Assembly (NCBI GenBank): GCA_028277745.1
Contig: JANQFR010000068.1
Span: 110,676-174,675, forward strand
Length of the DNA: 64,000 bases
From: Phycisphaeraceae bacterium
GTDB lineage: Bacteria; Planctomycetota; Phycisphaerae; Phycisphaerales; Phycisphaeraceae
Reading direction: 5' to 3'
The translations under genes were made by a program, and so were the position numbers. Positions within the stretch are counted from its first letter, which is position 1. Every line of letters starts with the position of its first letter. This document shows positions 30,462 to 62,257 of this stretch, piece by piece. The notes under the pieces were generated by a model. The model did not search any database, was not told the origin of the DNA, and was given only the letters and a program-made list of their open reading frames with translations.

Positions 30462-30652
30462 GGCTGGATCACGTCAATGGGGCTCAGGCGTCGCGATGCA
30501 CGGCGTCGGGGCGTCTGTCCCGGCTCGGACCAGCCCGCCGGGCTGACCATCCGCGCCCGGCCGTTCGAGATGTTGCCGCAGATGATCCGCTGTGAGCATG
30601 AACGCGAATTCTACTGAAAATAAAACCACAAGATTGGGCAGCCCACCAGAGA

Positions 30653-37204: not shown

Positions 37205-38338
37205 ATGATTTTATGTGTCTTTATCATTATCACAATGGCTGCGGTAAGTGACGTGTCGAATCCAAATAAAGAAGTGGCTCAAACTATGTTAGTTGTCGCA
37301 AAGGCATGGCAGGCAAACCAGAATCATCTCCAGACATGGACAGGCGATGTTGATCTTTCGCATTCTCTTAGTGATCAAGGCGGGGCAATTGTTGATAACA
37401 AAGGAAAAATTGATTTTGCTTATGATTCCATGACGAGGAATTATTACTCCAAATGGAATCGGGGGGAGGCAAAAGATCAGGCGACTTTCAGATATGCTGA
37501 AATGCGCAAGGATGGAAAATTTTTTACTTATTCAGATTTAAGCGGGAGCAGGGTGTTAACGATTGATGTGGAAAAGCAAAGTAACTTTAATCGACACGAT
37601 CGGCGTTTTGTGCCCCAGGAATTGTTTTCTCCAAATGGATTAGATGTCTACGGATTATTTACGAAGCTATCGACGCAACCTGATGTAGAGCAATTTTCAT
37701 CAGTGGAAAAGATCGGTGAGATTGTAACCGTGACGATCGAGGATGATGACGTTCTAAACATATATGAGTTTGACGTCGGGAAAGGAAATTTGATTTCGTA
37801 TAGAGGTATTTCAAAGGACAAAAGTGCCGATGAAAAATGGACATGGGAATATACGAATATTTCGGGTGTTTGGGTGCCAACGAAGATCATTCACTCGGTC
37901 ACTGCTGCAGGTTCGAGTGGGCCGGTAAAAATTGATCGAGTCACCACGATAGTCAAGCAGACAGTGAATCAGCCGCTGCCTCCGGATGCGTTTGCAATTG
38001 ATCATTTGGGCGTTAAGGCTGGCGACTTCGTTAAGGATCATATATTGAACTTTGTGTACGAATACTCGGGAGAGGATGCGATTGCGAAGGTCACAGACAT
38101 GCCGGAAGATCCATCATATTTTGTGGCGGACGCAGAGATGCCTGTTGACATAGAGGCAAATTCTGATCTTTCTGAGCCGTCGCCTTCTGTTAGATCTAAC
38201 GAGAGAACCGCAAATAGCAATGGTGAATATCGCTACGCTGTAGCAGGTGCGGTAAGCGTATTAGTTGTGATGCTTATTATCTTCGCCTTGCGGTTTTATC
38301 GAAGCCGTAGCGGATGGCCAAAGAATCCTAAGATATGA
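37205..38338 (+). CDS. Hypothetical membrane-anchored protein encoded in a 42% GC islet
   Basis: N-terminal anchor MILCVFIIITMAAV, C-terminal TM AVAGAVSVLVVMLIIFAL; codon usage is AT-rich (Lys/Asn/Ile-rich), unlike any neighbour. Confidence 0.55.
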   Translation: MILCVFIIITMAAVSDVSNPNKEVAQTMLVVAKAWQANQNHLQTWTGDVDLSHSLSDQGGAIVDNKGKIDFAYDSMTRNYYSKWNRGEAKDQATFRYAEMRKDGKFFTYSDLSGSRVLTIDVEKQSNFNRHDRRFVPQELFSPNGLDVYGLFTKLSTQPDVEQFSSVEKIGEIVTVTIEDDDVLNIYEFDVGKGNLISYRGISKDKSADEKWTWEYTNISGVWVPTKIIHSVTAAGSSGPVKIDRVTTIVKQTVNQPLPPDAFAIDHLGVKAGDFVKDHILNFVYEYSGEDAIAKVTDMPEDPSYFVADAEMPVDIEANSDLSEPSPSVRSNERTANSNGEYRYAVAGAVSVLVVMLIIFALRFYRSRSGWPKNPKI

Positions 38339-45987: not shown

Positions 45988-47193
45988 GTGCGTTTCGTGT
46001 CTGAAACGAAGAGTCATTCGGGCGTGATGGCCGGGGCCGTCGTCGCGGCATTGGTGGTCGGGTTGTTGGCTGGAGCAGCTGCGGTCTGGTTCCTGGCCGG
46101 TGGAGGCGGGCCCCCGATGGCCGGCCCCGCGGGTGGGCCGCCGGACGGGATGCAGGGGCCGCCGCCGGCGCTGGTGCGTCTGGGTCAGGTCGAGATGCAG
46201 GAGCTGCAGCACCGGGTGCCGATCGTCGGCCGGCTGCGCGAACTGCAACGGTCGACCGTCGCGGCGGAGGTCGAGGGCAAGATCGTCAAACTGCCCGTCG
46301 AAGAGGGCGACCCGGTGGAGGGCGGCAAGACCGTGCTCGCGGAGATCGAAGAGACCTGGACCCAACTCGCGTTGAAGGCCGCCACGGCGGACGTGGCCTC
46401 GGCGAAGGCGACGCTGGACCAGTCGCTGCTCGACCTGACGCAGCTGGAACACTTGGCCGGCGTCAGCAGCGCCAAGCCGAAGGAGGTGGCCGACGCCCGC
46501 GCCCTGGCCGATTCGAATCAAGCCCGATACGACGCCGCGGTGGCCGCGCTGGAGCGTGTCGAGGAAGAGGTGGAGCGTCTGACCATCCTCGCGCCATTCA
46601 CGGGCGTGGTGACGGAGAAGTACGCCGAGGTCGGCGAATGGGTTGAACGCGGGACCGATGTGATCCAGCTGATCTCCTCGGGCCAGATCGATGCGCTGAT
46701 CGATGTGCCCGAGGCCCTGGTTAACAACCTCGATCTGGGAGACGTCGTCGCGGTGCGGATCGATCCGCTGGGCGTCGAGCGTGAAGGGGAGGTGGTGTCC
46801 ATCACGCCGTTGGGGATGAGCTCGGCCCGGACGTTCCCGGTGAAGGTGCGGATGGCGAATGAGGACGGCGTGCTGAAGGCGGGGATGAGCGTGACCGCCG
46901 AGGCGCCGGTGGGCGAGGTGTCGCATTGTCTGACGGTGCCGCGGGACGCGGTGTTGCAGACGGCAACGGGCCAGCAGGTCTGGGTGGCGTTGTCGGGCGA
47001 GGGCCCGATGCCGGCGGCCGTTCCGGTGCCGGTCAAGGTGCTGTTCGGCGCCGGTGATCGGTACGTGGTTCAACCGATCGGCGAGGCGCCGATGTTCGAG
47101 GGGGTGGGCGTGGTGATCGAGGGGGCTGAGCGTTTGTTCCCGGGGCGGCCGTTGCAGGACGCGGATGCCGGGCCGCGGGCGGCGGCGGAGTAG
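45988..47193 (+). CDS. Efflux RND transporter periplasmic adaptor subunit
   Basis: Lipoyl/barrel-sandwich hybrid motifs (VEGKIVKLPVEEGDPVEGGKTVLAEIE), coiled-coil hairpin, beta-barrel and MP domains; GTG start. Confidence 0.85.
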   Translation: MRFVSETKSHSGVMAGAVVAALVVGLLAGAAAVWFLAGGGGPPMAGPAGGPPDGMQGPPPALVRLGQVEMQELQHRVPIVGRLRELQRSTVAAEVEGKIVKLPVEEGDPVEGGKTVLAEIEETWTQLALKAATADVASAKATLDQSLLDLTQLEHLAGVSSAKPKEVADARALADSNQARYDAAVAALERVEEEVERLTILAPFTGVVTEKYAEVGEWVERGTDVIQLISSGQIDALIDVPEALVNNLDLGDVVAVRIDPLGVEREGEVVSITPLGMSSARTFPVKVRMANEDGVLKAGMSVTAEAPVGEVSHCLTVPRDAVLQTATGQQVWVALSGEGPMPAAVPVPVKVLFGAGDRYVVQPIGEAPMFEGVGVVIEGAERLFPGRPLQDADAGPRAAAE

Positions 47194-47200
47194 TTTGACG

Positions 47201-50200
47201 ATGGACCTCATTCGTTTCTCAATCAACAACCCGGTCAAAGTGGCGGTCGGCGTGCTGCTGGTGATCCTGTTTGGGCTCATCTCGGTCTATACGATCCCCA
47301 TTCAACTCGTGCCCGATGTCGACGAGCCGATCATCACGGTGCAGACCGAGTGGACCGGCCGCAGCCCGCAGGAGATCGAGAAGGACATCATCGAAGAGCA
47401 GGAGGACAAGCTCAAGAGCTTGGCCAACCTGAAGAAGATGGTGGCCACCGCGTCGCAGGGGCAGGCCAATATCGAGCTGGAGTTCTACATCGGCACGGAT
47501 ATCAGCCGGGCCCTCCAGGAGGTGAGCGACAAGCTGCGCGAGGTGCCGGATTATCCCGACGACGTGGACGAGCCGGTGATCGAAGCGGCGGACGGGGCGA
47601 GCGAGAACGCGATCGCGTGGGTGATCCTGGATTCGACCGATCCGGACTACGACATCCAGAGCCTGTACGACTTTGCCGACAAGCGGATCAAGCCGCGCCT
47701 GGAGCGGGTTTCGGGGTTGAGCGAGGTCAACGTCTACGGCGGGCGTGAGCGTGAGGTGCATGTCCGTCTCGATCCGGGCAAGGTCGCCCATCGCGGCATC
47801 ACGTTCAATGAGTTGGCCAACGCCTTGTCGAACGACAACACCAACGTCTCGGCCGGCGACCTGGTGGATGGCCGGCTGGATGTTCGGATCCGCACCGTCG
47901 GTCAGTATGACGCCTTGGACCAGATCGCCAACACCGTCGTCCGCCACGACGACGGCGACGGCCCGATCCGCGTCAAGGACCTGGGCGACGTCGTGCTGAC
48001 GCTCGAGAAACGCCGCAGTTTTGTACGCGCCAACGGCAAGCCCGCCCTGGCGATCAACGCGATCCGAGAGACCGGCGCCAACGTTATCACCGCGATGGAG
48101 GGGTTTAAAGAAGGTATCGCGGACATCAATCAGAACATCCTGCCCTACTATGAAAATGACCGGTACGGGCTGCGGATGCGCCAGGTTTACGACGAAACGG
48201 TCTACATCTACGACGCCATCAGCCTGGTGCAGACCAACCTCTGGATCGGCGGCGTGCTCGCGGTCTGTGTCTTGTTGCTGTTTCTCCGCAGCATCCGGCC
48301 GACCGTCATTGTCGCGCTGGCGATCCCGGTGTCCGTGGTCGGCACGTTTGTGGTGATGACCGCCGCGGGCCGCAATGTCAATGTCATCAGCCTGGCGGGG
48401 ATGGCGTTCGCGGTGGGGATGGTGGTGGACAACGCGATCGTGGTGATCGAGAACATCGACCGTCACCTCAAGCACGGCAAGACGCCACGCGAGGCCGCGT
48501 ACGCGGCGACCAAGGAGGTCTGGGGCGCCATCCTGGCGTCGACCCTGACCACGATCGCGGTGTTCGTGCCGGTGCTCACGATTGAGGAAGAAGCCGGCCA
48601 GCTCTTCTTCGACATCAGTCTCGCCATCTGTGCGGCTGTGACCCTGTCGCTGATCGTTTCGGTGTCCGTTATCCCGTCGGCGTCGGCCCGGTGGCTGCGC
48701 CAACCGGTGGCGGCCCCGTCACAACTCCGCAAACAACTGGTCGGGCTCTTCGGATTGATCCCGCTGTTTAAAGCGTTTGGCCAGGGTTACGCCAACCTGA
48801 TTCACCGCCTCACCGCGCCGACGGCGTTGCGCTTCATGAGCCGCCTGGCCATCGTGGCGGTCTTCACGATCGTCTCCCTGGGCTTGTCTTATTCGCTGAT
48901 GCCGCCCGCGTCGTACCTGCCGGCCGGGAACCAGAACCTCATCTTCGGCATCATGCTGACGCCGCCGGCCTACAACATCGAACAGGCCCAGTTTATCGGT
49001 GAGCGGATCGAGCATGGCGTCCGTCCCTACTGGGAGGTCGATACGATTGAAGAGGCCACCGCGCTGGGACCCGTCGTCAACTTCTTCACCGGCGAAACGT
49101 ACCCACGTGTCCCGGCCATCAAAAATTACTTCTACGTCAGCTTTGACGGCACGATTTTCATGGGGGCCCAATCCATCGACGACGAGCTGGTCAAGCCTCT
49201 GGCTCCGATCCTCTCCAACAGCATGATGGCGATCCCCGGCTCGTTCGGCTTCGCGATGCAACGCTCGATTTTCGGGCGGGGCCTCTCGGGCACCAACGGG
49301 ATCGATATCGAGATCACGGGGAGCGATCTTGACCGTGTCCGCGGCGCCGCCGAGGTCCTTTACATGGCGCTGACCGGAACCTACGGCTTCATGAACGTTC
49401 AGCCGGACCCGCTCAATTTCAACCTCTCGGGCCCAGAGCTTCAGTTCAAGATCGATCAGGTGAAAGCCAAGGACATGGGCATCGACACCGCGGCGATCGG
49501 CGCCGGGATCCGTGCGCTGGTCGACGGGCTCGTGATCGGGGATTACCGACTCGAAGGTGAAAACATCGACCTGTTGCTGACGCGTCACCCCGAATACAAC
49601 CTGTCCGTGGACGAGCTGAGGAGCGTGCCGGTCACGGTTTTCGAGCCGGGTGGCGCCCGGGGAGTGGTTCCGATCAGTGAGATCGGCACTTTCGTTGAAA
49701 CCACGGCCCCTCAGCAGATCAAGCGGATCGAGCTGCTACGCGCGATCTCTTTCACCGTCACCCCGCCGGGCAGCGTGCCGTTGGAAGCGGCTCAGGACGA
49801 CATCATGCAGACGGTCGCCGGGCTCCGGGAGGCCGGCGCGATCCCGCCCGATGTCGCCGTTGCCCCTGCGGGCACCGCCGATAAGCTCCGCGACGTTCGC
49901 CGGGCGCTGCTCGGCCACTGGACCGGCTTCAACCTGGAGTCGATCTTCAGCCTGATCACCAGCCGGTTTTTCCTCGCGCTGTTGATCACGTTCCTGCTCA
50001 TGGCGGCGCTGTTTGAGAGCTTCATCTACCCGCTCGTGATCATGTTCACCGTGCCGCTGGCGACCGTGGGCGGGTTCCTCGGGCTCGCCCTGATGCACGC
50101 CTACGACCCGACCCAGCAGCTGGACACGCTGACCATGCTGGGCTTCGTGATCCTTGTCGGCATCGTCGTCAATAACGCGATTCTCATCGTTCACCAGGCG

Positions 50201-50542
50201 CTCAACTTTATGCGCGGCGTGAGCGAGTCAGAAGACATGACCGTCACCGCGATGCAGCCGCGCGAGGCGATCGCCGAGTCGGTCCGCACCCGAATCCGCC
50301 CGATTTTCATGACCACCTGCACCAGCGTCTTCGGCATGCTGCCGCTCGTTCTGATGCCCGGCGCGGGCAGCGAACTCTACAAGGGGCTCGGCAGCGTGGT
50401 GGTGGGCGGGCTCATCGTCTCGACGCTTTTTACACTTGTCGTCGTCCCCCTGCTGTTCAGCGTGGTGCTCGACATCAAGGCCTGGCTCTTCGGGGCTCTG
50501 GGGTGGCGGATGCCCGAGGCCCGCGCTACGGCCGGGATCTGA
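47201..50542 (+). CDS. Efflux RND transporter permease subunit (AcrB/HAE family)
   Basis: 1113 aa, 12-TM architecture with large periplasmic loops, a conserved TM4 region (AGMAFAVGMVVDNAIVVIENI) and its duplicated partner (LGFVILVGIVVNNAILIV). Confidence 0.9.
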   Translation: MDLIRFSINNPVKVAVGVLLVILFGLISVYTIPIQLVPDVDEPIITVQTEWTGRSPQEIEKDIIEEQEDKLKSLANLKKMVATASQGQANIELEFYIGTDISRALQEVSDKLREVPDYPDDVDEPVIEAADGASENAIAWVILDSTDPDYDIQSLYDFADKRIKPRLERVSGLSEVNVYGGREREVHVRLDPGKVAHRGITFNELANALSNDNTNVSAGDLVDGRLDVRIRTVGQYDALDQIANTVVRHDDGDGPIRVKDLGDVVLTLEKRRSFVRANGKPALAINAIRETGANVITAMEGFKEGIADINQNILPYYENDRYGLRMRQVYDETVYIYDAISLVQTNLWIGGVLAVCVLLLFLRSIRPTVIVALAIPVSVVGTFVVMTAAGRNVNVISLAGMAFAVGMVVDNAIVVIENIDRHLKHGKTPREAAYAATKEVWGAILASTLTTIAVFVPVLTIEEEAGQLFFDISLAICAAVTLSLIVSVSVIPSASARWLRQPVAAPSQLRKQLVGLFGLIPLFKAFGQGYANLIHRLTAPTALRFMSRLAIVAVFTIVSLGLSYSLMPPASYLPAGNQNLIFGIMLTPPAYNIEQAQFIGERIEHGVRPYWEVDTIEEATALGPVVNFFTGETYPRVPAIKNYFYVSFDGTIFMGAQSIDDELVKPLAPILSNSMMAIPGSFGFAMQRSIFGRGLSGTNGIDIEITGSDLDRVRGAAEVLYMALTGTYGFMNVQPDPLNFNLSGPELQFKIDQVKAKDMGIDTAAIGAGIRALVDGLVIGDYRLEGENIDLLLTRHPEYNLSVDELRSVPVTVFEPGGARGVVPISEIGTFVETTAPQQIKRIELLRAISFTVTPPGSVPLEAAQDDIMQTVAGLREAGAIPPDVAVAPAGTADKLRDVRRALLGHWTGFNLESIFSLITSRFFLALLITFLLMAALFESFIYPLVIMFTVPLATVGGFLGLALMHAYDPTQQLDTLTMLGFVILVGIVVNNAILIVHQALNFMRGVSESEDMTVTAMQPREAIAESVRTRIRPIFMTTCTSVFGMLPLVLMPGAGSELYKGLGSVVVGGLIVSTLFTLVVVPLLFSVVLDIKAWLFGALGWRMPEARATAGI

Positions 50543-50735: not shown

Positions 50736-51164
50736 ATGACATACCACGACAACGCCACCGCCTCGCTTCAAGACGCCCCCGAGGCGGACAAGACGTATTT
50801 CACCCTTGAACACGCCAACCGCGCTTTGCCTTACGTTCGGCGCATTGTGGATGACATTATGGCCGTCTATCGCGACGTCGTTGCCCTGCGCCGTCGGATG
50901 GAAACCGATGAGTCGGATGGGAGCGGCGTCGAGCGGCAATACCAAGAAGCGATCGATCGATTGGGCGAACTGGTCGATGAGGTTCAGGCCGTCGGCGTCG
51001 AGCTCAAAGATTTTGAACGCGGATTGGTCGATTTCCCCGCGCTGGCGGATGACCGGGAGGTCATGCTTTGCTGGCGAGCTGGGGAAGAGCACGTGAGCCA
51101 CTGGCACGAGGTCGACGCCGGGTACGCCGGCCGTCAACCGACTGACTCGCTTGGGCGGGCGTAA
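50736..51164 (+). CDS. Conserved hypothetical protein (DUF2203-like)
   Basis: SD gggagg before the ATG; 142-aa acidic protein; FTLEHANRALPYVRRIV...LKDFERGLVDFP resembles DUF2203. Confidence 0.45.
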   Translation: MTYHDNATASLQDAPEADKTYFTLEHANRALPYVRRIVDDIMAVYRDVVALRRRMETDESDGSGVERQYQEAIDRLGELVDEVQAVGVELKDFERGLVDFPALADDREVMLCWRAGEEHVSHWHEVDAGYAGRQPTDSLGRA

Positions 51165-51272: not shown

Positions 51273-53117
51273 CTACTGATGCGGTGTTGATTCGAGTTCC
51301 CGCAGTTCACGGCGCCACGCTTCGCGCTGCGCTTCGTCGATGCCGGGCTCCGGCAATAGAGACCGTCTGGTGCAGTTCACCAGGGCCTGAAGCGTCTGAT
51401 ATCGCCGTGCGGCGCCGATGTCTGCGGGCAGCAGGTCGTCGACGATCGTTTTGAGTTCATCTTCCCGCAAAGGTCTGTTTTTGATGGTTGATGCGGCTCG
51501 CAGCCGCGAACGCAACGCGGCGTATCCCGCAGCGGAATATCCTTCTGTCATCACACCGATCCGTTCCACCGCCTCGGGGCTCAACGTGTCGGTGGATTGA
51601 CCGATCGCCCATTTCACAAACTCGAGCCGATCCTCGCCTTCCGGGTCCAACACCGGGATGATCAGGTCGCCGACACGTCCCGGGCGGCGGATATCGGGGC
51701 TCAGCCGCTCGATGCGTGCGGTCATCAGCAGCCAGACCACCTTCCCCCGTAGTTTCGGGTCGCTCATCATCTGCTGCACCTTGCCGGTCAGCCGTCGTTC
51801 CGTCGCGTGGGCGTCCGGCCCAACCCCGCCGAACTGCGTGTCCGCCTCGTCGACAAACAGGATCACTTTGTCGAGCGCTTCAAGCATGCGTCGTAGTCGT
51901 TCAAAGATGACATCGGTCTGGCCGAAATACTGGCTGCGGATGTTTTTCAGCACCAGCACGGGCAGTCCGAGCGATCCGGCGACGGCTTCGAAGATGAACG
52001 TTTTCCCGGCGCCGATCGGCCCCGCGACGGCGGCGCCCGGCAACGCGGATTCATCTTCCGCTTTGACCCGTGGAATGAATTCGTCTTGGAGAAAGCGTTT
52101 CAGCCCGCTGTAGCCCACGACATCCTGCAACGTGTGTGCCGGTTTCTTGAACTCCACCACACCGGGCCCGACCTGGGACGTGATGAAAGTCTCGACATGC
52201 TCGATGGCGGCGTCGGCCGTGACCGCTTTGTTTGTATGCGCCGCCTCCATCAGCACCTGGCGTAACGCATGGATCGATAGGCCCGCGGTGGATTTGGCGA
52301 GTTCTTCGATACTGCATGAAAGCGATGGTTGGGGGCGTTGATGACGCAGGAACCAGTCGACGTAATGCCGGCGGGTCGCCGCATCAGGCGATGGCGCTTC
52401 CACGGTTAACACCTGCGGCAGCCGCGTAATCCGAGGATGCACCTGGCTCTCGGATTCGGCCAGAAGCACCACGCTGTCTTCGCCGTTGCAGAAAGCCGGA
52501 TCGCTGAACCAGTCCTGCATCACCGACACCCGGTGGCGGTCCGCTACCGGCAGCCGCGTGATCTCTCCGTCTCCCGCGGGGACGAGCATGTCGGCCGCTT
52601 CGATAAAAATCATCAGCCGAAAGCGTTTGGCGCTGCGGGAGCAGAGCGTCACCTGACGAAGAAACTCCAGCGCGACCGTGGGCCGGCCGATCGCGTCACG
52701 CAACGACTCATCGAAGCTGTTCTCGGCCTCGGCTTTCCGGCTCGCCGCGGCTTGATCGCTTAAGCCTCTCAGGACCAGGGTGTCAAGTTCTACGCCCGTT
52801 TTCCAAGCCACCCAGGCATGACGGACCTTTTGGGCGTCTCCGTCGTCAATAAACCGTATGGGGCCATTGAGTTCATAGACAATCCGGACAAGGTTGTCGA
52901 CGTTGCAGCGGGCGATCAAATAGTGCAGCAAGGGCTGATAGGAGCCGTCAAAGGGATCGGCCCCGCCGTCGTCATCTTCGAGTTGTGAGGTCCGGTTGGG
53001 CGTGTAGAAGAGGTCGTGCACGTCGCCGGCAACAAGCAGACTCCTTGATTGGCCGCTGTTGAATACGCGGGCCAATCGTCTGAAGAAAGCGTAGCTTGGG
53101 GCCGGGGGAGTGCTCAT
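51273..53117 (-). CDS. Classic-clade AAA ATPase with a 330-aa unknown N-terminal domain
   Basis: Walker A GPIGAGKT, Walker B ILFVDEAD, second region of homology LLMTARIERLSPDIRRPGRVGDLIIPVLDPE; start 3 nt after the PspA-like stop. Confidence 0.8.
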   Translation of the reverse strand: MSTPPAPSYAFFRRLARVFNSGQSRSLLVAGDVHDLFYTPNRTSQLEDDDGGADPFDGSYQPLLHYLIARCNVDNLVRIVYELNGPIRFIDDGDAQKVRHAWVAWKTGVELDTLVLRGLSDQAAASRKAEAENSFDESLRDAIGRPTVALEFLRQVTLCSRSAKRFRLMIFIEAADMLVPAGDGEITRLPVADRHRVSVMQDWFSDPAFCNGEDSVVLLAESESQVHPRITRLPQVLTVEAPSPDAATRRHYVDWFLRHQRPQPSLSCSIEELAKSTAGLSIHALRQVLMEAAHTNKAVTADAAIEHVETFITSQVGPGVVEFKKPAHTLQDVVGYSGLKRFLQDEFIPRVKAEDESALPGAAVAGPIGAGKTFIFEAVAGSLGLPVLVLKNIRSQYFGQTDVIFERLRRMLEALDKVILFVDEADTQFGGVGPDAHATERRLTGKVQQMMSDPKLRGKVVWLLMTARIERLSPDIRRPGRVGDLIIPVLDPEGEDRLEFVKWAIGQSTDTLSPEAVERIGVMTEGYSAAGYAALRSRLRAASTIKNRPLREDELKTIVDDLLPADIGAARRYQTLQALVNCTRRSLLPEPGIDEAQREAWRRELRELESTPHQ

Positions 53118-53120
53118 GCA

Positions 53121-53945
53121 TCATTCCGGCAGTTTCGCGCCGCCCCCATCAGGGGAATCGCCGTTTTCTCGATCCGATTCCCCCGCCAGTCCTATCAACC
53201 GATCAAACTCATCGTTCGCGAGGCTCTTCTGTGCGTAGTCCAGGAACTCCGCTTCCTGCGCCTTGGTGTCAGAGCCGGCCAGTTCTTTGCTGACGCGCGC
53301 CTTGGCCTTCATCTCATCACGCAATTGGCGCATATCCGCCAATTCGCGGGATGTACGGTCCTGGCTGATGCCCGCCAACATGTCGTTGATCTCTTGCTCC
53401 TCCTTGGCGGTGATCATCTCCGCGACCGCGGTCGCCTGTTCTTCTCGCAATGTCTCAATGTCCTGAAGCATCTGCTGGAGTTGAATCTTGTGGCCCTTGA
53501 TGGATTCGTCCATCTCGGTGACTTCCTGCTCAAGTTCTACGATTCGATTGCCTTTCTCTTCGATCTTGGCGGTGAATCCATTGAAAGCCACCAGGCATTT
53601 CTGGTAATCTTCATTGGATTTGATCGTCTCCATGCCAACCCCCGACGTCTTGAGTTCGCCAATGACGGTCCGGGCTTTCGCCGCCGCCCCTTCTTTCAAT
53701 TGTTCGAGCCGGTTGACTTCATCGGTCTCCGCCTTGATTTTGCCCATCTTGTTTTCGTGTTGAACGATGAGCCTGGCGATGGCGTCTTTGAATTGCTGGA
53801 TGCTCTTGCGTTTTTCCTCAATAACGTTGTCGTAGGTTGCGTTGACGACGTGCGGGTTTGTGCTGAGCGTACGTCTGGCGGCGTCGATCCGGCCGGTGAC
53901 CATGTAGCCGAGAGCTCTGAAATATCGACTTACAGCTTTAAACAT
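53121..53945 (-). CDS. PspA/IM30 family protein (ESCRT-III superfamily, phage-shock/Vipp1-like)
   Basis: PspA-like N-terminal amphipathic segment MFKAVSRYFRALGYMVTGRIDAARRTLSTNP, then about 230 aa of heptad-repeat coiled coil with an acidic tail; start at ATG 53945. Confidence 0.6.
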   Translation of the reverse strand: MFKAVSRYFRALGYMVTGRIDAARRTLSTNPHVVNATYDNVIEEKRKSIQQFKDAIARLIVQHENKMGKIKAETDEVNRLEQLKEGAAAKARTVIGELKTSGVGMETIKSNEDYQKCLVAFNGFTAKIEEKGNRIVELEQEVTEMDESIKGHKIQLQQMLQDIETLREEQATAVAEMITAKEEQEINDMLAGISQDRTSRELADMRQLRDEMKAKARVSKELAGSDTKAQEAEFLDYAQKSLANDEFDRLIGLAGESDRENGDSPDGGGAKLPE

Positions 53946-53989
53946 GTTGGGCTCCTTTACCGTGATCCTAAATCCCCGAGCCGGATTTG

Positions 53990-56900
53990 TCACTCTTCGG
54001 GCGATCGGCTTCGTTCAAGCTTGGCGATCATCGTGTCATACTTGGTGACCATATCCTGGAGAGTTGCGCCAAGCTGTTTGAGCTGCCCGTCTTGATCAGC
54101 GGTGATCCGTGTCAGGGGTTCAAGCCAGCCTTTCATGAGGTTGAACTGTTCTTTCATGACATAAAGAAATGTTGACGGCACTTTATTGACGACCCGGATC
54201 TCATGCGGCGGGCTTTCTTGACCGGATTTGGGCGGTGGGACGGGGCGGCTTGCCGCCGCGGCGCGGATCGCATCGATTGTTTCTTCATCGAGTTTCGCCT
54301 CGACCACGCGTGAGGCGTCAATCGCTTCCCCGATCGATGCGAGGGCGGTGTTGAGCCTTGTGACCTGTTCCATGAGCGGAACGAGTTCTGTCTGATCTTT
54401 AGCGGATAGTCCTGTGCTGATCGCCTGATGGATCTCGTCAAGCCCCTCGTTGAACGACGCAAGTTGTACAAGCACTTGCGCCGTTCGGTCGTCGCCGTCG
54501 ATCCCGGCCAAATGGTTGTTTCGGCGAAATGTCTTTTTGATTTCTTCCCATCGGCCTTGTTCCTGATCGTTGATGATGCCGATCAATTCCTTGAATTTGA
54601 GGAGGTTCGCCTCCGCGCCGGTGGTCAGCGTTTGGGCGTCTTGTTCGTAGCTGGACAGGATCAGGGTCTGGAGCTCATCATCGTTCATGACGGACGATAC
54701 TTTCTCAGCAATCCGATTCATATTGCGATACGAACCCTGTAACCCAAAAGCCGGTTCAGTTCGATATTTGGTTTCCATGCCCGCCGAACGAATGTATTCC
54801 TGATTAACCGCCAGAATTACGTCACGCACACGCATGAGCTTGCGCATCACACCGACCATTTCATTGATTTCGTCAGATGAATAATTGCCTTCAAAATCGA
54901 TGTCATCGCGAGAGTTTGTTTCGGCGATTTTGATGATGCTATAGACGTCTTCCTGACTTCGGCTGGCGAGTTGGTTCAATGCAGGGTTGCTGGTCAGCGC
55001 ATTTTCCAAGTAGCTCATCACAAATGCGTCACGGTGGTCGCCGATGATATCGCCGAGGTTGTAGGTGTCGGCCCGATTGGCAAGCATATCGGGGATGTGA
55101 AATTTCTCTCCGGATTCGGTGTATGGGTTGCCCGCCATGACGACGGCGACTTTGCGGCCGCGGAAATCATACGTTCTCGGCCTGCCTTTATAGACCCCTT
55201 CGATCTTCCGTTGCGCATCGCAGAGGCTGATGAATTTCTGAAGAAATTCACTGCTGCAATGCTGGATGTCATCAACGTAGATCATAACGTTGTCGCCCAT
55301 CTCGAAAGCTAGATTGAGTTTGTTTAACTCATCCCGGGCGGCGGCATTGGAGGCTTCCTGAGGGTCGAGCGATGTCACGGAGTGTCCGATCGCGGGGCCG
55401 TTGATTTTCATGAAAATCACCCCCAGTCGATTGGCGATGTACTCCATGAGCGTGGTTTTTCCATACCCCGGCGGCGAGATGAGCAGCAGCATGCCCATCC
55501 GGTCGGTGCGGGTGTTTTCGCCTGCAGAACCCATCTGTTTGGCGAGGTTGTCGCCGATGAGCGGGAGAAAAACCTTGTCGATCAGCTTGTTTCGGACAAA
55601 CGAGGTCAGCACGCGAGGCTTGAACTCGTCGAGCCTCATCTCCTCACGAGCCTGCTCGGCGAGCATGCGTTTCCTGTGGGTGTATTGTTCAAAAGCCGGC
55701 GCCTGTAGCGTTACAAACCGATCAAGTCGATTTGTGAACTCGTTGTAATTTAATTCCAAAACACCGTCGATAATGCGTTGGTGTGAACCGGTCAGATTCT
55801 CAATGGTTCGGGCGACGCTGGCCTGTACAATGCGGGAATGATCGAACGGTTTATCGAGGAGCATGAGCGCGGCTTCACTGAGATAGCCTTCATGCTTGGA
55901 CGGATCGATTTCATTGGTTTCAAGAAAAGCACGGAGCCAATCACAAGCAAGTAAAAACTGCGTAACCGGTTGATCAGCGACGTTATCAAGTGAACGTTGG
56001 AACTTCTGAACGGCGCGGAATGTTTTTAGCCGACCCAGGAACGCATCGTACAGCGCGGCGGCTTCCGGACTGGCGACGAAACGGTTGTTTCCTGTTGTCA
56101 ATTCATGAAACAGATAGACCCCAGCGTCTTTGGTTTTTGCAGGATTAAACAGTTGGTGAGTGTCATTGAAAGCGGTGATATCATGGCGGATATCGTCGAT
56201 GTAACGGCCTTGTTCGTCATTCTCAGGAAAATAACCTGAGATCGCGCCGTAGCCGCATAGCCTCAACGTCATCAAGCGCTTGTCATCGTCTTCAGGACGG
56301 GTCCGCCAATAGAGGCCGGCCATGGCTCGTGATTCACTGGGGTACCGCAGCAGGCCGATACTTCCGTCTAACTCCATTAAGGCTTTGAGAATTTTGGAGC
56401 TGTCGTGGTCGTGAACGCCTTTAATATACCCTTCACTGTAGCGCGAACTCATGAACTTCTGAGTGTGCGCAAGCAGTGCGTTGTCATCAAGATCCGCCAA
56501 ATGGACAGCGTTGCTGTCGATTGACATCAGGTAGGCGAGATATTCGCTTCGATAGACATCAGGATTCTCAGATACGATCTCTTGTGTCCAGATGCTGTGA
56601 TCAGAGTTGAGCGCCTCATCTTCGATGGGCTCGAAGAACCGTGTCCCGCTGATGTGAAGATTCATTCTGTCATCACGGAGCACCATCGTGAGGTCCACCG
56701 CTTGCGTATTAACGCTAAATACATGTTTGCCGAAGCGGATGGTGTTAGGTCCATCGACCATCAACTCCTGACGGTCTTTGAGTTGCCGTACGGCATCCTC
56801 CCGGATGGTTTTGATCTGCGAGTGAATATCATCGACTTTGACGGTGTCTTCAAGATCGGAGAGCTCATCAATAAGGTCCCGGAGTTTTTCAACCATCAAG

Positions 56901-59296
56901 TCTGACGCGAAATAGGAATTGATGGCATTGACCGTATCCAGGCCGTCGACCCGGCTTTTAATGCCGCGTAAAATCCTGTCTGCGGCGGCGGCTAACGCGG
57001 TAGATCGTTTGTTGCGCTTTTCGGTGATCTGTAGTTTACGGTTTTCGAAAGCGTTGTAGATCTCATCACGTTTTTCGGTTAACTGCAGCACGAAGTCATC
57101 AAACTCCGCGAATCGTCCTTCGACCTCTTCGATCTGAACCATCATCTTGGTCAGGTATTGGTCTGTTTTTTCCGCGGTGTCGCAGAGGTCAAGGTAATTG
57201 ATGACGGATTGATTGAGCAGTTTGAGTTGGCTGTTGAACTCGGCGATGCCCTCAGAGCGGCCGAGGTCTTGGTTTTTGTTGCGGAGGCGGCTGCGCGCGG
57301 CATTCAACTCGCTGAAAATGATCGAGACGGAGTCGAGGATCGCAGTGCGCTGCGTAGCGTCATCGATTTTGAGATTGCTGACGATGTCAATCAGCATCTC
57401 CAGTTCGTTCGATGTCGAAGTAATCTGAGTATCGAGCTCGCTTGCGTCCGCCGCTTTCGTAAGGCTGTCGATCCTGTCCGCCTGTTGCTTAACCGCGTGC
57501 TCATAAGGCGACAGCGCGTCGGGCTGCAGCAGGAAATCTACGGTTCTACGACTCAAGCTTTCCGTCTGATCCTGAACGGAAACCTCCAGAGCATTGACCT
57601 GGGTTTCGTCTATGTAACGCAAGTCACGTAAACTGATAATCTTTCCCCGAATTTCACGGAGTGATGCCAGCGACTCCACAAAGGAATGAATGCTCTCGTA
57701 AATCCGGCTTGCATTGCGATTTATTAATTCGCTGGCGGCGGCTGACGTTTCTTTGAGGTGCGCCTCTGTCGCACGCCGGACGCGCGTGACTTTTTCAAAC
57801 TCCCCCACCGCAGCCAGGCCGGCGTCCTTGATCTGGGTGAGTGTTTCCGCCAGATTGAAACACTCGGAGTGTCCGAGCCAGAAAAAAGAATCCAGCAGGT
57901 CGCTGGTCGCTTTTACAATGTCAACATACAGATCGGCATAGCGTTCTTCGCGTCGGATCAGATTGAGTATGCCGACGCATTCCGCCATACCGCGGACGAT
58001 CTCTTTGTTTCCGATTTTAGATAGATAGGTATCAGACTGTTTTTCTGGGACATAATTCGGGCCGACGTAAGGCGTTTGCCAGATCTGGATGGCGTGGTGT
58101 TTCTGTGGCTCTTCACCGGCTTTGAAGAAGATCAATTCGCCATTGGAAAAGAAACTGTAGCCATTGCAAAGGGTTGGCGTGTCGATCTGCTGCTCGATCA
58201 GGTTGTAGGAAAGCAGCACGTAGACGCCATGCGTCCGGTTATAGAAAACATACAGAAAATCTTCGCCGTTCGGCGCCGCGATGCGGCGCTCAAACACCAT
58301 AGATTCGGTCAGGTCCTGAAGAGTCGGGAAGGTTTGAGTGCGTCCGTCAGCAAGGTAATAGCCATCAGCGAAGATCAGGCCCTGGTCGTCGGGAAGCAGG
58401 ATGCATGCGTGTTCGATAGCATCTAATCGAACGACATTCTGAAGTTTTTCATTAAAGATGAAATAACGATAGTTTGATTCCTGGTAAGGCCTGATGCGTA
58501 GCAGGATAAGATGGCCATGCGCGATGTATGTAATGTCCGCGTCATCTAAGGTCTGATCCGGATCATCGACGGGCTCGGCATAGATCCCGGCGCCGGCGGC
58601 GGTGTTGTTTTCAACCTTGATCGTTAGATCGCCGCCTACGGTTTCGACGAAAACACGGTCCTGGATCGATGCATGGGGATGTTGACCGGTGACGAAATCA
58701 TCACGGGTGACGCGGACCCAATCGAGTTCGTGCTGATCGGGGTAGCGGACTTCGTGGTCAGATCGGTTGTCGATGTAGGTTAGGCGGCCATCTTTTGATA
58801 ACCACTTGAAAGCCTTAAAGTCATCGGGGTGATTGCCGACATGAAATTTCATGTAGATATGCGGCCCGCTGCGGAAGAATTTAGCGAAGGCCGTATTTTT
58901 ATAGAATCGGTAAAGGTCGCGAAAATCTTTTTTGAACCGTTCGTCACCGATGAGTTCGAGGGGCTCTTCATGGAAGGTTGAGCCGTCGAACCGGTAAACG
59001 GAAAAGACATCGGCGAGTTCGATCTCGGTGCGGAGCCCGAACTGGACGTTATATCCAAAGAGGAACCGGTCGCCGATCGGGACCATATCCCGGGGGACGC
59101 AGTTGTTGCTGGTGGTGACGCGTTCCGCACCGACCAGCTTGGTTTCGATCGATCCGAAGACGCTCATACGCGCTTCGTTAAGCTGATCGAGTCGAGACCT
59201 CAGTTCGCGGCCATGATCGGCGAGCCGTTTCTGGATGATCTCATAAGCGCCCTGTTCAAGCTGGGCTTCGGGTTGTTTTGCAGCTTGGTCTGGCAT
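53990..59296 (-). CDS. Giant (1768 aa) uncharacterized protein: N-terminal beta-rich domain, long central coiled coil, MoxR/AAA_5-like P-loop ATPase domain and helical C-terminal region
   Basis: Single uninterrupted ORF at about 51% GC; Walker A LLISPPGYGKTTL, Walker B-like VMIYVDDIQH, AAA_5-like RGRKVAVVMAGNPYTE; coiled-coil segment about residues 520-900. Confidence 0.75.
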   Translation of the reverse strand: MPDQAAKQPEAQLEQGAYEIIQKRLADHGRELRSRLDQLNEARMSVFGSIETKLVGAERVTTSNNCVPRDMVPIGDRFLFGYNVQFGLRTEIELADVFSVYRFDGSTFHEEPLELIGDERFKKDFRDLYRFYKNTAFAKFFRSGPHIYMKFHVGNHPDDFKAFKWLSKDGRLTYIDNRSDHEVRYPDQHELDWVRVTRDDFVTGQHPHASIQDRVFVETVGGDLTIKVENNTAAGAGIYAEPVDDPDQTLDDADITYIAHGHLILLRIRPYQESNYRYFIFNEKLQNVVRLDAIEHACILLPDDQGLIFADGYYLADGRTQTFPTLQDLTESMVFERRIAAPNGEDFLYVFYNRTHGVYVLLSYNLIEQQIDTPTLCNGYSFFSNGELIFFKAGEEPQKHHAIQIWQTPYVGPNYVPEKQSDTYLSKIGNKEIVRGMAECVGILNLIRREERYADLYVDIVKATSDLLDSFFWLGHSECFNLAETLTQIKDAGLAAVGEFEKVTRVRRATEAHLKETSAAASELINRNASRIYESIHSFVESLASLREIRGKIISLRDLRYIDETQVNALEVSVQDQTESLSRRTVDFLLQPDALSPYEHAVKQQADRIDSLTKAADASELDTQITSTSNELEMLIDIVSNLKIDDATQRTAILDSVSIIFSELNAARSRLRNKNQDLGRSEGIAEFNSQLKLLNQSVINYLDLCDTAEKTDQYLTKMMVQIEEVEGRFAEFDDFVLQLTEKRDEIYNAFENRKLQITEKRNKRSTALAAAADRILRGIKSRVDGLDTVNAINSYFASDLMVEKLRDLIDELSDLEDTVKVDDIHSQIKTIREDAVRQLKDRQELMVDGPNTIRFGKHVFSVNTQAVDLTMVLRDDRMNLHISGTRFFEPIEDEALNSDHSIWTQEIVSENPDVYRSEYLAYLMSIDSNAVHLADLDDNALLAHTQKFMSSRYSEGYIKGVHDHDSSKILKALMELDGSIGLLRYPSESRAMAGLYWRTRPEDDDKRLMTLRLCGYGAISGYFPENDEQGRYIDDIRHDITAFNDTHQLFNPAKTKDAGVYLFHELTTGNNRFVASPEAAALYDAFLGRLKTFRAVQKFQRSLDNVADQPVTQFLLACDWLRAFLETNEIDPSKHEGYLSEAALMLLDKPFDHSRIVQASVARTIENLTGSHQRIIDGVLELNYNEFTNRLDRFVTLQAPAFEQYTHRKRMLAEQAREEMRLDEFKPRVLTSFVRNKLIDKVFLPLIGDNLAKQMGSAGENTRTDRMGMLLLISPPGYGKTTLMEYIANRLGVIFMKINGPAIGHSVTSLDPQEASNAAARDELNKLNLAFEMGDNVMIYVDDIQHCSSEFLQKFISLCDAQRKIEGVYKGRPRTYDFRGRKVAVVMAGNPYTESGEKFHIPDMLANRADTYNLGDIIGDHRDAFVMSYLENALTSNPALNQLASRSQEDVYSIIKIAETNSRDDIDFEGNYSSDEINEMVGVMRKLMRVRDVILAVNQEYIRSAGMETKYRTEPAFGLQGSYRNMNRIAEKVSSVMNDDELQTLILSSYEQDAQTLTTGAEANLLKFKELIGIINDQEQGRWEEIKKTFRRNNHLAGIDGDDRTAQVLVQLASFNEGLDEIHQAISTGLSAKDQTELVPLMEQVTRLNTALASIGEAIDASRVVEAKLDEETIDAIRAAAASRPVPPPKSGQESPPHEIRVVNKVPSTFLYVMKEQFNLMKGWLEPLTRITADQDGQLKQLGATLQDMVTKYDTMIAKLERSRSPEE

Positions 59297-59339
59297 GCAA
59301 ATCTAGTATGAAAAAAACTGGTTCTGGTCCGGGAATAAA

Positions 59340-61442
59340 TCACTTGGCGCCGTCGAGAAGGCCGAGTTTGCCGACCTTCTTGTCCGCCAGGCCAGCGGAT
59401 TTGGCGGCGCCGAGCAGGTTCTGCAATTCGGATTTAAGCATGTCGTCGCTGGAAAGACTGATCATCCGCGTGACCAGCGCCGCGACGGTCAGGTTCTTGG
59501 CGTCTTCCGCGTCGATGCCGAACTGCCCGACGAACTGTCGGACCTTACGCTGGAAGTACTCGGGCGAACCATTGAAGAAAGTCGACTTGATGTCGGAGAG
59601 CACCTCGGAGTTGCCGACCATGCGGTCGACTTGTTTGCCGGAGGTGATGGAGTTGATGATGCGGTCGAAGAACTGGCCGTCGCCGCCGACGATATCGATG
59701 TTCGCCTGCTTGAGGGCCTCGGCCAGCACCGCGGCCTGCTCGGCCGCGATCTTCGCCTTGATCTCGATCTCCGCCAGCTCCACCGCTTTTTCTTTGTCGA
59801 GATGGAGCTTGAACTCTTCGTGCTCCTTGCCCACGCCGTCGAGCTTCTTCATGGCTTCGGCCTTGGCGGCGACGCCCTCGGCCTCGGCGGAGTAGTGCTG
59901 GTTCAACGCGCCCGCTTCGGCTTCGCCCCTCTTGGCGATCACATCGGCCTCGGCTTCGCCCTTCCTGGCGGTGACTTCCGCCTCGGCCGTGCCGTAGTTG
60001 CGCACGGCGCCGGCCTTGGCGTCCATCACTTCCGCCTCGGCCAAACCGGAGGCGGCGGTTTCGGCCTGGACCGCCTCGGCGAGCTTCATCTTGCCCAGGG
60101 CTTCCTTCTCCGCGGCCTGGCGCTGAGCCTCGGCCTCGATGAGGACCTCGTCGGCCTGGAACTTGGCGGCGGTCTTGCCCGCCTCGGCCGCCTTGACCTC
60201 CTTGATCAACGCTTCCTCGGCCAACGCCTCGGCGGCGGTGACCTGCACACCCTTTGCACGCGTCGCGGCCGCCAGCTCTTCGGTATCCTTGATGCGCTCC
60301 TGCTCCTCCACCACCGCCCGCTCGACGATGACGCGTTCGCGGATCACGTCCTGGATCTTCTTGCGCTCCACCTCGAGGGCTTTTTCCTTCTCGATCCGGG
60401 CCAGTTCGACCACGCGTTCGCGCTCGGTGGCTTCGAGATCACGTTCGCGCTGGACCCGCTCCTGCTCCACCGCGTGAGTGCGTAGCTTGGACTGTTCGGC
60501 CACAATAACCTGGCGGAGCTTGTTCTCTTCCTGGACACCCAGCTCTTCTTCGGTGGAGATGCGGGCGCGCTCTGATTTAAGTTTTTCCTCTTCGCGAGCT
60601 TTGTCAGCTTGGGCCTGCTCACGTACGGTGATCTCGGCGATCTCGCGCTTCTGCCGCTGCTCGGCTTCGGCCTGCTGTTTCTCCAATTCAAGAATCGCTT
60701 CACGGGCCTCGACGTCCTGCTTGGTGATCGTCTTCTCTTTTTCGCGATTGATGTCGTTGGCGAAGACCTGTTCCCTGGCGGTCAGGTCGGTGATCTTCTT
60801 GATGCCCTCGGCGTCGAGGATGTTGCTGGGGTCAAGCTTGGTGACGTCAGTCTGTTCGAGGTAATCGATGGCGGCGTCGTCCAGGACGTAACCGTTCAGG
60901 TCGGTGCCAAGATGGGCGAGGATTTCCTCTTTAAACTTTTCCCGTTCGGTGTATAGATCGGTGAAGTCAAATTTTTTACCAACGGTTTTGAGGGCTTCGG
61001 AGAACTTGGCGTCAAAGAGTTCGATCAGAGCAGCTTGATCGGATGCTCGCTTGCAACCAATGGACTGAGCGACTTGGAGGACATCTTTCGCCGAATTATT
61101 GACCCGGACAAAGAATGCAACTTTGATATCAGCACGAACATTATCTTTGCAGATCAATCCTTCAGATCCATGTCGATAAATTTCAATCCGTTTGACAGAG
61201 ATGTCCATGATCTCTTCACGGTGGAAAACGGGCCAGACTAAAGTGCCGCTGAAACTAACTTTTACTCCCGAACTGCCCCGCAAAGTGACCCCGGTTCTGA
61301 CCAGCGCCGTTCCCTGCTCAACTTTCCGGAAGCATTTCACAAAAGTAATGACAAAGACAAAAATGATCAGAAGGCCAAACAGGGCGGCTAACGCCCCCAG
61401 GATGCCTAGACTGTTAAGCAATGCGAGTGACGGCATGTACAT
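59340..61442 (-). CDS. Flotillin family protein (SPFH/band-7 domain plus extended Ala/Glu-rich coiled coil, YqiK-like)
   Basis: N-terminal TM helix, SPFH domain, about 350 aa of EA-repeat coiled coil (flotillin domain), C-terminal oligomerization region; 700 aa. Confidence 0.85.
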   Translation of the reverse strand: MYMPSLALLNSLGILGALAALFGLLIIFVFVITFVKCFRKVEQGTALVRTGVTLRGSSGVKVSFSGTLVWPVFHREEIMDISVKRIEIYRHGSEGLICKDNVRADIKVAFFVRVNNSAKDVLQVAQSIGCKRASDQAALIELFDAKFSEALKTVGKKFDFTDLYTEREKFKEEILAHLGTDLNGYVLDDAAIDYLEQTDVTKLDPSNILDAEGIKKITDLTAREQVFANDINREKEKTITKQDVEAREAILELEKQQAEAEQRQKREIAEITVREQAQADKAREEEKLKSERARISTEEELGVQEENKLRQVIVAEQSKLRTHAVEQERVQRERDLEATERERVVELARIEKEKALEVERKKIQDVIRERVIVERAVVEEQERIKDTEELAAATRAKGVQVTAAEALAEEALIKEVKAAEAGKTAAKFQADEVLIEAEAQRQAAEKEALGKMKLAEAVQAETAASGLAEAEVMDAKAGAVRNYGTAEAEVTARKGEAEADVIAKRGEAEAGALNQHYSAEAEGVAAKAEAMKKLDGVGKEHEEFKLHLDKEKAVELAEIEIKAKIAAEQAAVLAEALKQANIDIVGGDGQFFDRIINSITSGKQVDRMVGNSEVLSDIKSTFFNGSPEYFQRKVRQFVGQFGIDAEDAKNLTVAALVTRMISLSSDDMLKSELQNLLGAAKSAGLADKKVGKLGLLDGAK

Positions 61443-61460
61443 TGAAATAACCTCCGGGTT

Positions 61461-62120
61461 TCAAAAACCCCTGATGTAATAGACGTTCCGCGTATCGTCC
61501 TCGGATACGATGACGGCTTCGTCGCCTTTTTTTAAGGTTGATTTGGAATCGCTGGTCCGAGCGTTGAGCAGCAGCGGGGCGCCGTCGGTGTCGACTTCGA
61601 CCTGACCGCGGCGATGGTCGACCGTCAGAGAAACCACGCGGCACCGAGAGCCCACGATATGGATCATTGCCTCGGCTTCTTCCTGGTCCTTGATCTTCTT
61701 GTACAAGATCTTGGCCGGATGCGTGAGGATTTTGGTCACAAAAACAGCTCCGACGATCATGAGCGGCAGGGCGATGAGTTGCGTTAGCACCGCGAGGCTG
61801 CCCGCGATCAGGTAAGTCCCGACGCTGATCGTCCACAGCGTCAGGACAAACACGCTCAGTAGGATCGTCACCGGCACGTAGCCGATGTTGAGGAACCGCA
61901 TCATCGAAACCCCGACCGACGCGTCGCCGATCGACGCGTCGATATCGACGTCGGCGTCTACATCCACGTCCACGTCGGTGTCCACGTCAAAATCGAAGTC
62001 GAGGGACTCGAGGTCGAGGGCGCCGAGGATGACGAACAGCCAATAGATCACGCACAGGCCGAGGATGACGGTCAGCGTCAGGTTGACGGGTGCAAGGCAG
62101 GCTTCGATGAACTCGGTCAT
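61461..62120 (-). CDS. YqiJ/NfeD-like membrane protein with C-terminal OB-fold
   Basis: Two to three TM helices, an acidic DxD repeat loop (DFDFDVDTDVDVDVDADVDID), C-terminal beta-barrel-like VGSRCRVVSLTVDHRRGQVEVDTDGAPLLLNARTSDSKSTLKKGDEAVIVSEDDTRNVYYI; ATG at 62120, with a possible GTG at 62144. Confidence 0.6.
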   Translation of the reverse strand: MTEFIEACLAPVNLTLTVILGLCVIYWLFVILGALDLESLDFDFDVDTDVDVDVDADVDIDASIGDASVGVSMMRFLNIGYVPVTILLSVFVLTLWTISVGTYLIAGSLAVLTQLIALPLMIVGAVFVTKILTHPAKILYKKIKDQEEAEAMIHIVGSRCRVVSLTVDHRRGQVEVDTDGAPLLLNARTSDSKSTLKKGDEAVIVSEDDTRNVYYIRGF

Positions 62121-62257
62121 GGCGTTTGGCCCCCGATGGGTCACGCCAAGGATAGCGGCTTCCGAGGTGGCGTGGGTGGGAATCGGGCCCGGCCTTTCAA
62201 CGAAATTGGGACACCGAACAATCTGGTAACAGTCGGGGGAGTCGGTAGACTGTGGCG

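Follow-up and report, generated by a model that had tools for sequence, protein, structure and literature searches.

The window analyzed here, 64,000 nucleotides (nt) of DNA from a Phycisphaeraceae bacterium of the phylum Planctomycetota (contig JANQFR010000068.1), carries two neighboring genes, called the dyad below, for a protein of the PspA/IM30 type and an AAA ATPase. An original prediction, made from the DNA letters, likened the two to ESCRT-III and Vps4. As a functional analogy this comparison may stand, but in architecture and orthology it does not: to judge from its sequence, the ATPase is a tandem (type II-like) classic-clade AAA protein resembling Cdc48 and Pex1 and not a Vps4 orthologue. 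The dyad closes, at the 3′ side, an operon of five genes, which the original prediction overlooked together with the second, giant AAA+ protein (DUF3686) and the tentatively flotillin-like and YqiJ-like proteins encoded there. The function favored here, by analogy and as an account somewhat likelier to be right than wrong, is ATP-driven remodeling of a polymer of the PspA-like protein by a dedicated classic-clade AAA unfoldase.

The Tandem AAA ATPase

The downstream gene of the dyad encodes two AAA domains (Table 1). The second of them, D2, whose classic-clade AAA domain spans residues 361-560, is matched by the Pfam AAA family (E 7e-15) and looks active; Walker A, pore loop, Walker B, and the second region of homology (SRH) with its RRPGR motif are all in place, and K372, D423/E424, R477/R478/R481, and the YFG of the pore loop are invariant in 38 homologues. 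The canonical Walker motifs and SRH arginines pointed out in the original prediction are thus genuine, and its assignment of the enzyme to the classic clade is borne out by the solved relatives, which comprise VAT, Rix7, Vps4, FtsH, spastin, and p97. Classic AAA proteins have Asn at the sensor-1 position (the N of the motif ATNRP). This position is occupied in D2 by Ala (A467), which is invariant in the 38 homologues (MTARI), the other catalytic residues being canonical. Beyond the AAA lid follows a very strongly conserved segment with an invariant Cys, RRYQTLQALVNCTRRSLLP, for which no counterpart was recognized in Vps4 or Cdc48.

The N-terminal part had been described as a 330-residue domain of unknown fold. 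This is not so; in an AlphaFold2 model of the ATPase (pLDDT 88.9), residues 1-320 consist of a beta-alpha-beta core and a helical lid, and form a degenerate AAA domain, D1, that begins about 25 residues from the N-terminus. Its nucleotide-binding motifs are lost, with DE changed to EA at Walker B. Because D1 is as conserved as D2 among the 38 homologues, it probably has a role of its own as a scaffold or binding platform, most plausibly in docking. An MIT-like helical bundle, which had been suggested as a thing to look for in this region, is not found there, the region being AAA, and Pfam gives no match to the MIT domain in the ATPase. The enzyme likewise has no transmembrane (TM) segment and no DNA-binding domain.

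Searches for relatives agree with this architecture. By PDB sequence, AFG2, VAT, and p97 are the closest solved relatives, and Vps4 is the last of the matches listed (60th, E 1e-9). NCBIfam matches to CDC48, PAN, CdvC, and FtsH are partial and far below threshold; the score is 32.2 bits for CdvC, where the cut-off is 650, and 56.9 for CDC48 (TIGR01243, one domain matched), where it is 802.65. It is because the supposedly unknown N-terminal domain is a degenerate AAA domain, and because MIT is lacking, that the ATPase is classed as tandem and not as Vps4-type.

The PspA-like Protein

Taken singly, the PspA-like protein scores 16.2-16.5 bits with the Pfam family PspA_IM30 (PF04012), below the gathering cut-off of 33.9, and for this reason its assignment is convincing only with family profiles; the PspA/IM30 likeness that had been proposed is upheld at the level of the family but not of the single sequence. 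A HMMER search of 1.84 billion cluster representatives delimited a discrete family of 580 clusters (E<=1e-3), 446 of which reach E<=1e-10. Its members match PF04012 below threshold in 22/41 and 30/131 cases (best E 3.4e-7). A profile of close homologues (A2) reached Vipp1 among PDB sequences at E 0.07, which is too weak. When the profile is built instead from 131 diverse members that share 25-51% identity with the query (A3), Vipp1 and PspA chains rank top among PDB sequences (hmmsearch, E 9e-9), and the match to Vipp1 runs through two collinear segments, residues 39-96 to 30-87 and 132-250 to 98-213, which include the ELAG-D motif; some artificial coiled-coil constructs score nearly as high against A3, over the first helix only. 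Alignment of A3 with 120 cyanobacterial Vipp1 sequences by hhalign (96.5%, E 8e-10, 212 columns) joins residues 6-253 to Vipp1 5-216, from the N-terminal helix (alpha0) through alpha5, the Vipp1 side of this comparison being shallow, as identity among the 120 sequences exceeds 90%. Between the family profiles and a single approximate E. coli PspA sequence, hhalign found no significant alignment. The AlphaFold2 model suggests a long hairpin, with Vipp1 (6zvr) as the top Foldseek match, and the protein is predicted to be soluble and all-helical, with no TM segment. Its homologies thus place it in the PspA/IM30/ESCRT-III superfamily, as a true but divergent subfamily. Two different paralogues of this PspA-like family lie on one 5.5-Mb chromosome in at least one genome from Phycisphaeraceae (OY771506.1, locus L012), and several such systems may coexist in a genome.

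Both ends of the protein are conserved. At the N-terminus, where Y14, T17, G18, D21, and R24 are invariant, AlphaFold2 places helices at residues 3-16 and 19-27, and residues 1-14 are strongly amphipathic (hydrophobic moment 0.68). The helix is aligned with the Vipp1 N-terminus by hhalign, and we infer that it mediates membrane binding. In the C-terminal tail, EF, L.IGLA, and L-P-E are invariant or nearly so among the homologues, the apparent conservation of EFDxLIGLA being biased since this motif was contained in the search patterns derived from A2; the linker between DEFDxLIGLA and (K)LPE is variable and acidic. An LPE-type end occurs in all close relatives (49/49 and 27/27) and in 72 of the 131 diverse family representatives. 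As a hypothesis only, the tail might be the element by which the ATPase recognizes its partner.

Conservation of the Pairing

Two signature peptides of the ATPase matched 555 stretches in the species-genome collection, 535 of which encode a relative. These relatives are overwhelmingly found in Planctomycetota (Phycisphaerae, Pirellulales, Gemmatales, and others), and a few in Hydrogenedentes, Acidobacteriota, and unclassified genomes. Among 80 ATPase-centered genome loci, taken with no requirement on their flanks, 49-50 have a PspA-like gene, in every case on the strand of the ATPase gene. In the well-flanked subset (44 loci with at least 5 kb on both sides), a PspA-like gene is present in 37, directly upstream in 25, upstream with genes between in 6, and downstream in 6. 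Seen from the other side, a tandem AAA gene lies downstream in 18/27 PspA-centered metagenome loci, which were gathered with the A2 search patterns and have at least 6 kb downstream. Recurrence in dozens of independent genomes puts the pairing far beyond chance. The adjacency that the original prediction proposed to follow by comparative genomics is therefore conserved, and what was found is neither an unrelated N-terminal domain nor a loss of the PspA linkage elsewhere. The distance between the two genes is another matter; it varies from 0 to about 370 nt (0-368) in the 25 directly upstream cases, and the 3-nt gap of the window is the tight end of this range, not a conserved trait.

The pair is embedded in two operon contexts. 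In the one found in the window, it follows a DUF3686 gene; this occurs in 12/80 ATPase-centered loci, the named ones being from Phycisphaeraceae, Phycisphaerae, and unclassified Planctomycetota, and flotillin-like and YqiJ-like genes lie further upstream wherever the fetched flank is long enough. Some of these loci (e.g., L001, 7701-8642) have an extra gene between DUF3686 and PspA-like for a 313-residue protein with two TM segments and a helical region; the gene is absent from the window. The other context (L012, L025, and L037) comprises, in this order, an OmpA-domain protein, a TM-helical protein of about 248 residues, the PspA-like protein, a solute-binding protein, a permease, an ABC ATPase, and the tandem AAA. 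The ~248-residue protein (two TM segments and a helical region), to which phmmer finds no similarity in the 313-residue protein, has its gene immediately 5′ of the PspA-like one in 41/56 PspA-centered loci, and has been seen at L012 (5365-6111), L013, L016, L025, L037, and at least 36 metagenome loci; it is a more constant neighbor of the PspA-like gene than the ATPase.

The Five-Gene Operon

Five consecutive open reading frames (ORFs) with spacers of 3-44 nt occupy the minus strand at 51273-62144, in the order YqiJ/NfeD-like, flotillin-like, DUF3686 AAA+, PspA-like, and tandem AAA. The distance of 3 nt between the PspA-like stop and the ATPase start was read correctly in the original prediction (junction CTG CCG GAA TGA tgc ATG AGC); the two genes are probably co-transcribed, and translational coupling is predicted. 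As the PspA-like start, the ATG at 53945 is used in all homologues and in independent gene calls, and a Shine-Dalgarno sequence, AAGGAG, lies 7 nt 5′ of it; an alternative GTG 48 nt further 5′ would give 290 residues. A scan for promoters and terminators returned counts near those expected from shuffled sequence and no informative sites.

Of the three upstream products, the DUF3686 protein is the most readily classified, with Pfam matches to DUF3686 (1e-186), DUF7902 (3e-25), and AAA (9e-7) and no TM segment; a literature search for DUF3686 found no paper. In the 700-residue protein, a single TM segment at the N-terminus is accompanied by a long region rich in Glu, Ala, and Lys. Its sole sequence match is a collinear one to NCBIfam FloT (E 0.0016), no Pfam or PDB sequence match appears even at E<=1-10, and three homologues tested behave alike. 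It is called flotillin-like tentatively, and mainly because its gene is placed between those for the YqiJ-like and DUF3686 proteins, an arrangement shared with a published operon; if it belongs to the SPFH family, it is a very divergent member. The 227-residue protein matches Pfam YqiJ_N just under the cut-off (E 1.6e-4), is conserved in relatives, and has its TM segments between residues 12 and 142 (19-residue windows with starts at 12-124). Membrane segments are thus confined to the flotillin-like and YqiJ-like proteins. PADLOC matched the operon proteins to IetA over a short P-loop stretch (residues 364-427, E 6e-7) and to LmuB over a coiled coil; an anti-phage defense system was rejected, these matches being generic only.

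GC content at third codon positions (GC3) is 0.62-0.79 in the five-gene block, lowest in the DUF3686 gene (0.62), and 0.86-0.90 in the genes for the resistance-nodulation-division (RND) pump, its membrane-fusion partner, and RecN; overall GC of the block is likewise markedly below that of adjacent genes. Because its GC3 is below that of its neighbors, horizontal acquisition of the block is suggested. The flanking genes (RND pump and membrane-fusion protein, DUF2203, and RecN-like) are not kept beside the dyad in relatives, and DUF2203 is found in none of the 80 ATPase-centered loci. Elsewhere in the window there are two more low-GC patches, at 30001-32000 and 36001-38000 (0.56-0.57 against about 0.65-0.70 around them).

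Table 1. Features of the dyad, its operon, and the flanking genes (positions in the window).
Feature	Positions	Strand	Description
Tandem AAA ATPase	51273-53117	-	614 amino acids
D2 and C-terminal extension	51273-52157	-	ATPase residues 321-614; active-looking classic-clade AAA domain and conserved C-terminal helical extension
Conserved C-terminal segment	51345-51407	-	ATPase residues 571-591
D2 SRH	51666-51725	-	SPDIRRPGRVGD, to residue 484
D2 sensor-1 position	51720-51722	-	A467
D2 Walker B	51840-51863	-	ILFVDEAD, residues 419-426
D2 pore loop	51912-51938	-	SQYFGQTD, residues 394-402
D2 Walker A	51999-52022	-	GPIGAGKT, residues 366-373
D1	52158-53117	-	ATPase residues 1-320; degenerate AAA domain; no Walker A; IFIEAAD at Walker B position
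Intergenic spacer	53118-53120	-	tgc, 3 nt, PspA-like stop (TGA) to ATPase start (ATG)
PspA-like ORF	53121-53945	-	274 amino acids from ATG
PspA-like C-terminal tail	53124-53213	-	conserved; DEFDRLIGLA, low-complexity linker, terminal KLPE
PspA-like N-terminal helix	53865-53945	-	residues 1-27; amphipathic, alpha0-like; candidate membrane anchor
DUF3686 + DUF7902 + AAA+ protein	53990-59296	-	1768 amino acids; directly upstream of PspA-like gene
TM-anchored coiled-coil protein	59340-61442	-	700 amino acids; tentatively flotillin/SPFH-like
YqiJ/NfeD-like protein	61461-62144	-	227 amino acids; multi-TM; first gene of operon
RecN-like SMC ATPase gene	62252-63973	+	divergent; borders block
DUF2203 gene	50736-51164	+	convergent; borders block
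RND efflux pump and membrane-fusion protein	45988-50542		flank

Proposed Mechanism and Alternatives

In the favored mechanism, the PspA-like protein would sit on the inner face of the cytoplasmic membrane by way of its N-terminal amphipathic helix and polymerize there. A hexamer of the ATPase would grip the exposed, conserved C-terminal tail, possibly via D1, and ATP use by D2 would extract or unfold subunits, threading them through the D2 pore, by which the polymer would be recycled or reshaped. The flotillin-like, NfeD-like, and DUF3686 proteins would set the site of action; since the dyad ends a flotillin-like/YqiJ-like/DUF3686 operon, its position points to work in envelope stress or membrane remodeling, with membrane microdomains of the flotillin type as the place.

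Several observations weigh against this mechanism. The linkage is strong but not obligatory, as a nearby PspA-like gene is missing from 7/44 ATPase loci and about one third of the PspA-like loci have no ATPase within 10 kb. The LPE tail is present in all relatives with or without an adjacent ATPase, and provides no contrast between the two. Because EFDxLIGL aligns by hhalign to the end of Vipp1 alpha5, it may be a polymer contact instead of an ATPase-binding motif. On the side of the enzyme, neither MIT nor any other substrate-binding domain is recognizable, and the Ala at sensor-1 may entail atypical ATP hydrolysis. The DUF3686 protein is a second adjacent AAA+ protein and could be the actual partner. 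The commonest neighbor of PspA-like genes, the ~248-residue TM-helical protein, is absent here, tblastn finding nothing like it in the window. A literature search found no experimental work on the dyad.

The tandem AAA might instead act on other substrates, e.g., by extracting or unfolding damaged membrane proteins within flotillin-type microdomains, with the PspA-like protein as its membrane-targeting adaptor or stress sensor. Such arrangements have parallels in FtsH, which works inside HflK/C cages, and in Cdc48 and Msp1, which extract proteins. The ATPase has no membrane anchor of its own, its nearest solved relatives are the general unfoldases VAT, p97, AFG2, Pex1, and FtsH, and membrane proteins accompany it both here (flotillin-like and YqiJ/NfeD-like) and elsewhere, where the dyad lies beside an ABC transporter and an OmpA-domain protein. 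However, the PspA-like gene is the sole partner kept across operon types, the flotillin/DUF3686 module being present in only 12/80 loci, and no protease or other obvious client is encoded; an adaptor role is considered unlikely, if a serious contender. That the PspA-like protein restrains the ATPase and frees it under membrane stress, leaving the ATPase as effector, or as a holdase by which PspA-like subunits stay soluble, and not as a disassemblase, is a rather improbable alternative modeled on E. coli, where PspA negatively regulates the AAA+ protein PspF (PMC7619361). Conserved D1 could offer the docking surface for such inhibition, and the invariant Ala at sensor-1 hints that the ATPase is slow or regulated, but an aromatic pore loop and arginine fingers, both intact, speak for substrate threading. 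A PspF-type transcriptional regulator was rejected on domain grounds; because the ATPase belongs to the classic clade, is no NtrC-type enhancer-binding protein, and has no DNA-binding domain, a PspF-type output in transcription is impossible.

It could also be with the DUF3686 AAA+ protein that the PspA-like protein works in this operon, the tandem AAA being a passenger with an unrelated role, or the whole block an anti-phage or accessory island. The DUF3686 stop codon is only 44 nt from the PspA-like ATG, the low GC3 of the block is as expected for an acquired island, and published operons tie PspA to an AAA+ protein of the DUF3686 type. Nevertheless, a PspA-like gene accompanies the tandem AAA in 50/80 loci against 12/80 for DUF3686, and PADLOC recognizes no defense system; this reading is considered very improbable.

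Implications

If ATP-driven remodeling of the PspA-like polymer is taken to its full extent, Planctomycetota and some other bacteria would have a true ESCRT-III-plus-disassemblase machine, one that works like Vps4 on ESCRT-III but has a Cdc48/Pex1-like tandem AAA for its basis, in which a dead D1 ring, not MIT, reads the EFDxLIGLA...LPE tail, and which in Phycisphaeraceae is a five-component apparatus with a flotillin/NfeD microdomain and DUF3686. We regard this larger picture as possible yet somewhat doubtful. Planctomycetota, in which the dyad is most common, are known for elaborate membrane invaginations. If true, the larger picture would contradict a 2025 review (PMC7619361), according to which a Vps4-like ATPase “appears absent in bacteria”, and the enzyme could be an example of the Cdc48-like stage presumed to have given rise to Vps4. 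For the recycling of bacterial ESCRT-III relatives (PspA and Vipp1) without Vps4, the dyad is a concrete and testable candidate, widespread and conserved, and it provides experimental handles in its dead D1 and live D2, the lack of MIT, and the conserved LPE tail on the partner. This is not the discovery of a new kind of system; its interest is moderate, because the dyad bears on the open question of disassembly without Vps4.

Comparison with Known Systems

ESCRT systems consisting of ESCRT-III and Vps4 are restricted to archaea and to eukaryotes, and Vps4 derived from Cdc48 (Makarova et al., 2024). Like Vps4/CdvC, the window ATPase combines a classic-clade SRH with a pair of arginine fingers and an aromatic pore loop, but unlike them it has no MIT domain and has two AAA domains, not one; the putative polymer-forming protein belongs to the PspA/Vipp1 branch, whereas those of ESCRT-III (CdvB in archaea) belong to the Snf7/CHMP branch. 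The relation would accordingly be one of analogy at most. Type II classic AAA proteins with an inactive D1 (Pex1/Pex6 and NSF-like), and Cdc48, VAT, Rix7, and AFG2, resemble it in architecture; the window ATPase differs from them in lacking an N-terminal double-psi-barrel or other adaptor-binding domain before D1 and in having the sensor-1 Ala and its unique C-terminal segment. With E. coli PspA-PspF it shares the genetic linkage of a PspA-family protein to an AAA+ ATPase, but PspF is an NtrC-type activator with a helix-turn-helix and is inhibited by PspA, whereas the ATPase here is a classic-clade tandem protein encoded co-directionally in the same operon.

The closest precedent is the comparative genomics of Ravi, Anantharaman, Aravind, Gennaro et al. 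(mSystems, 2024; PMC11237479). It describes a dyad “PspA + inactive-classical-AAA + classical-AAA”, with AEY64320.1/AEY64321.1 and OGG56892.1 as exemplars, and longer operons with an ABC ATPase, permease, PBPB/OmpA protein, and membrane-anchored divergent Snf7, among them the variant PspA, PBPB/OmpA, permease, ABC ATPase, TM-Snf7-like, inactive-AAA+AAA; it proposes an ATP-dependent membrane remodeling “comparable to Snf7 and VPS4”. The ABC-transporter/OmpA variant was recovered independently at L012, L025, and L037, and the ~248-residue protein is probably the published ‘SIG+TM+Snf7’. Like that dyad, the one in the window has a PspA-family gene beside a two-AAA protein with an inactive N-terminal copy, and its relatives share the extended operon; to judge by architecture and operon identity, its ATPase is of the type described there. 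The order is PspA then AAA here, against AAA then PspA in the Clostridium example.

The same source joins operons of YqiJ/YuaF, Band-7/flotillin, and beta-propeller/coiled-coil AAA+ proteins to a CesT/Tir-PspA pair, and the DUF3686 protein corresponds to the ‘beta-propeller + coiled-coil + AAA-ATPase’ of its Table S3. Like the YqiJ(NfeD)-YqiK(flotillin) operons of that table (Dokdonia ANH61663.1), the window has the order YqiJ-like, TM flotillin-like, and giant AAA+, with a PspA-family gene present; unlike the Dokdonia operon, it has no CesT/Tir, its PspA gene, a member of the tail-bearing, tandem-AAA-linked subfamily, stands at the 3′ end, and its flotillin assignment is weak. Compared with the published dyad, it is joined to the YqiJ/flotillin-like/DUF3686 module and lacks the TM-helical partner. 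The combination of this module, without CesT/Tir, with the PspA-tandem-AAA dyad was not found in the text and tables of Ravi et al. that were consulted, a minor point of novelty; the association and the hypothesis are already published, and what the window adds to them is a slightly new operon arrangement.

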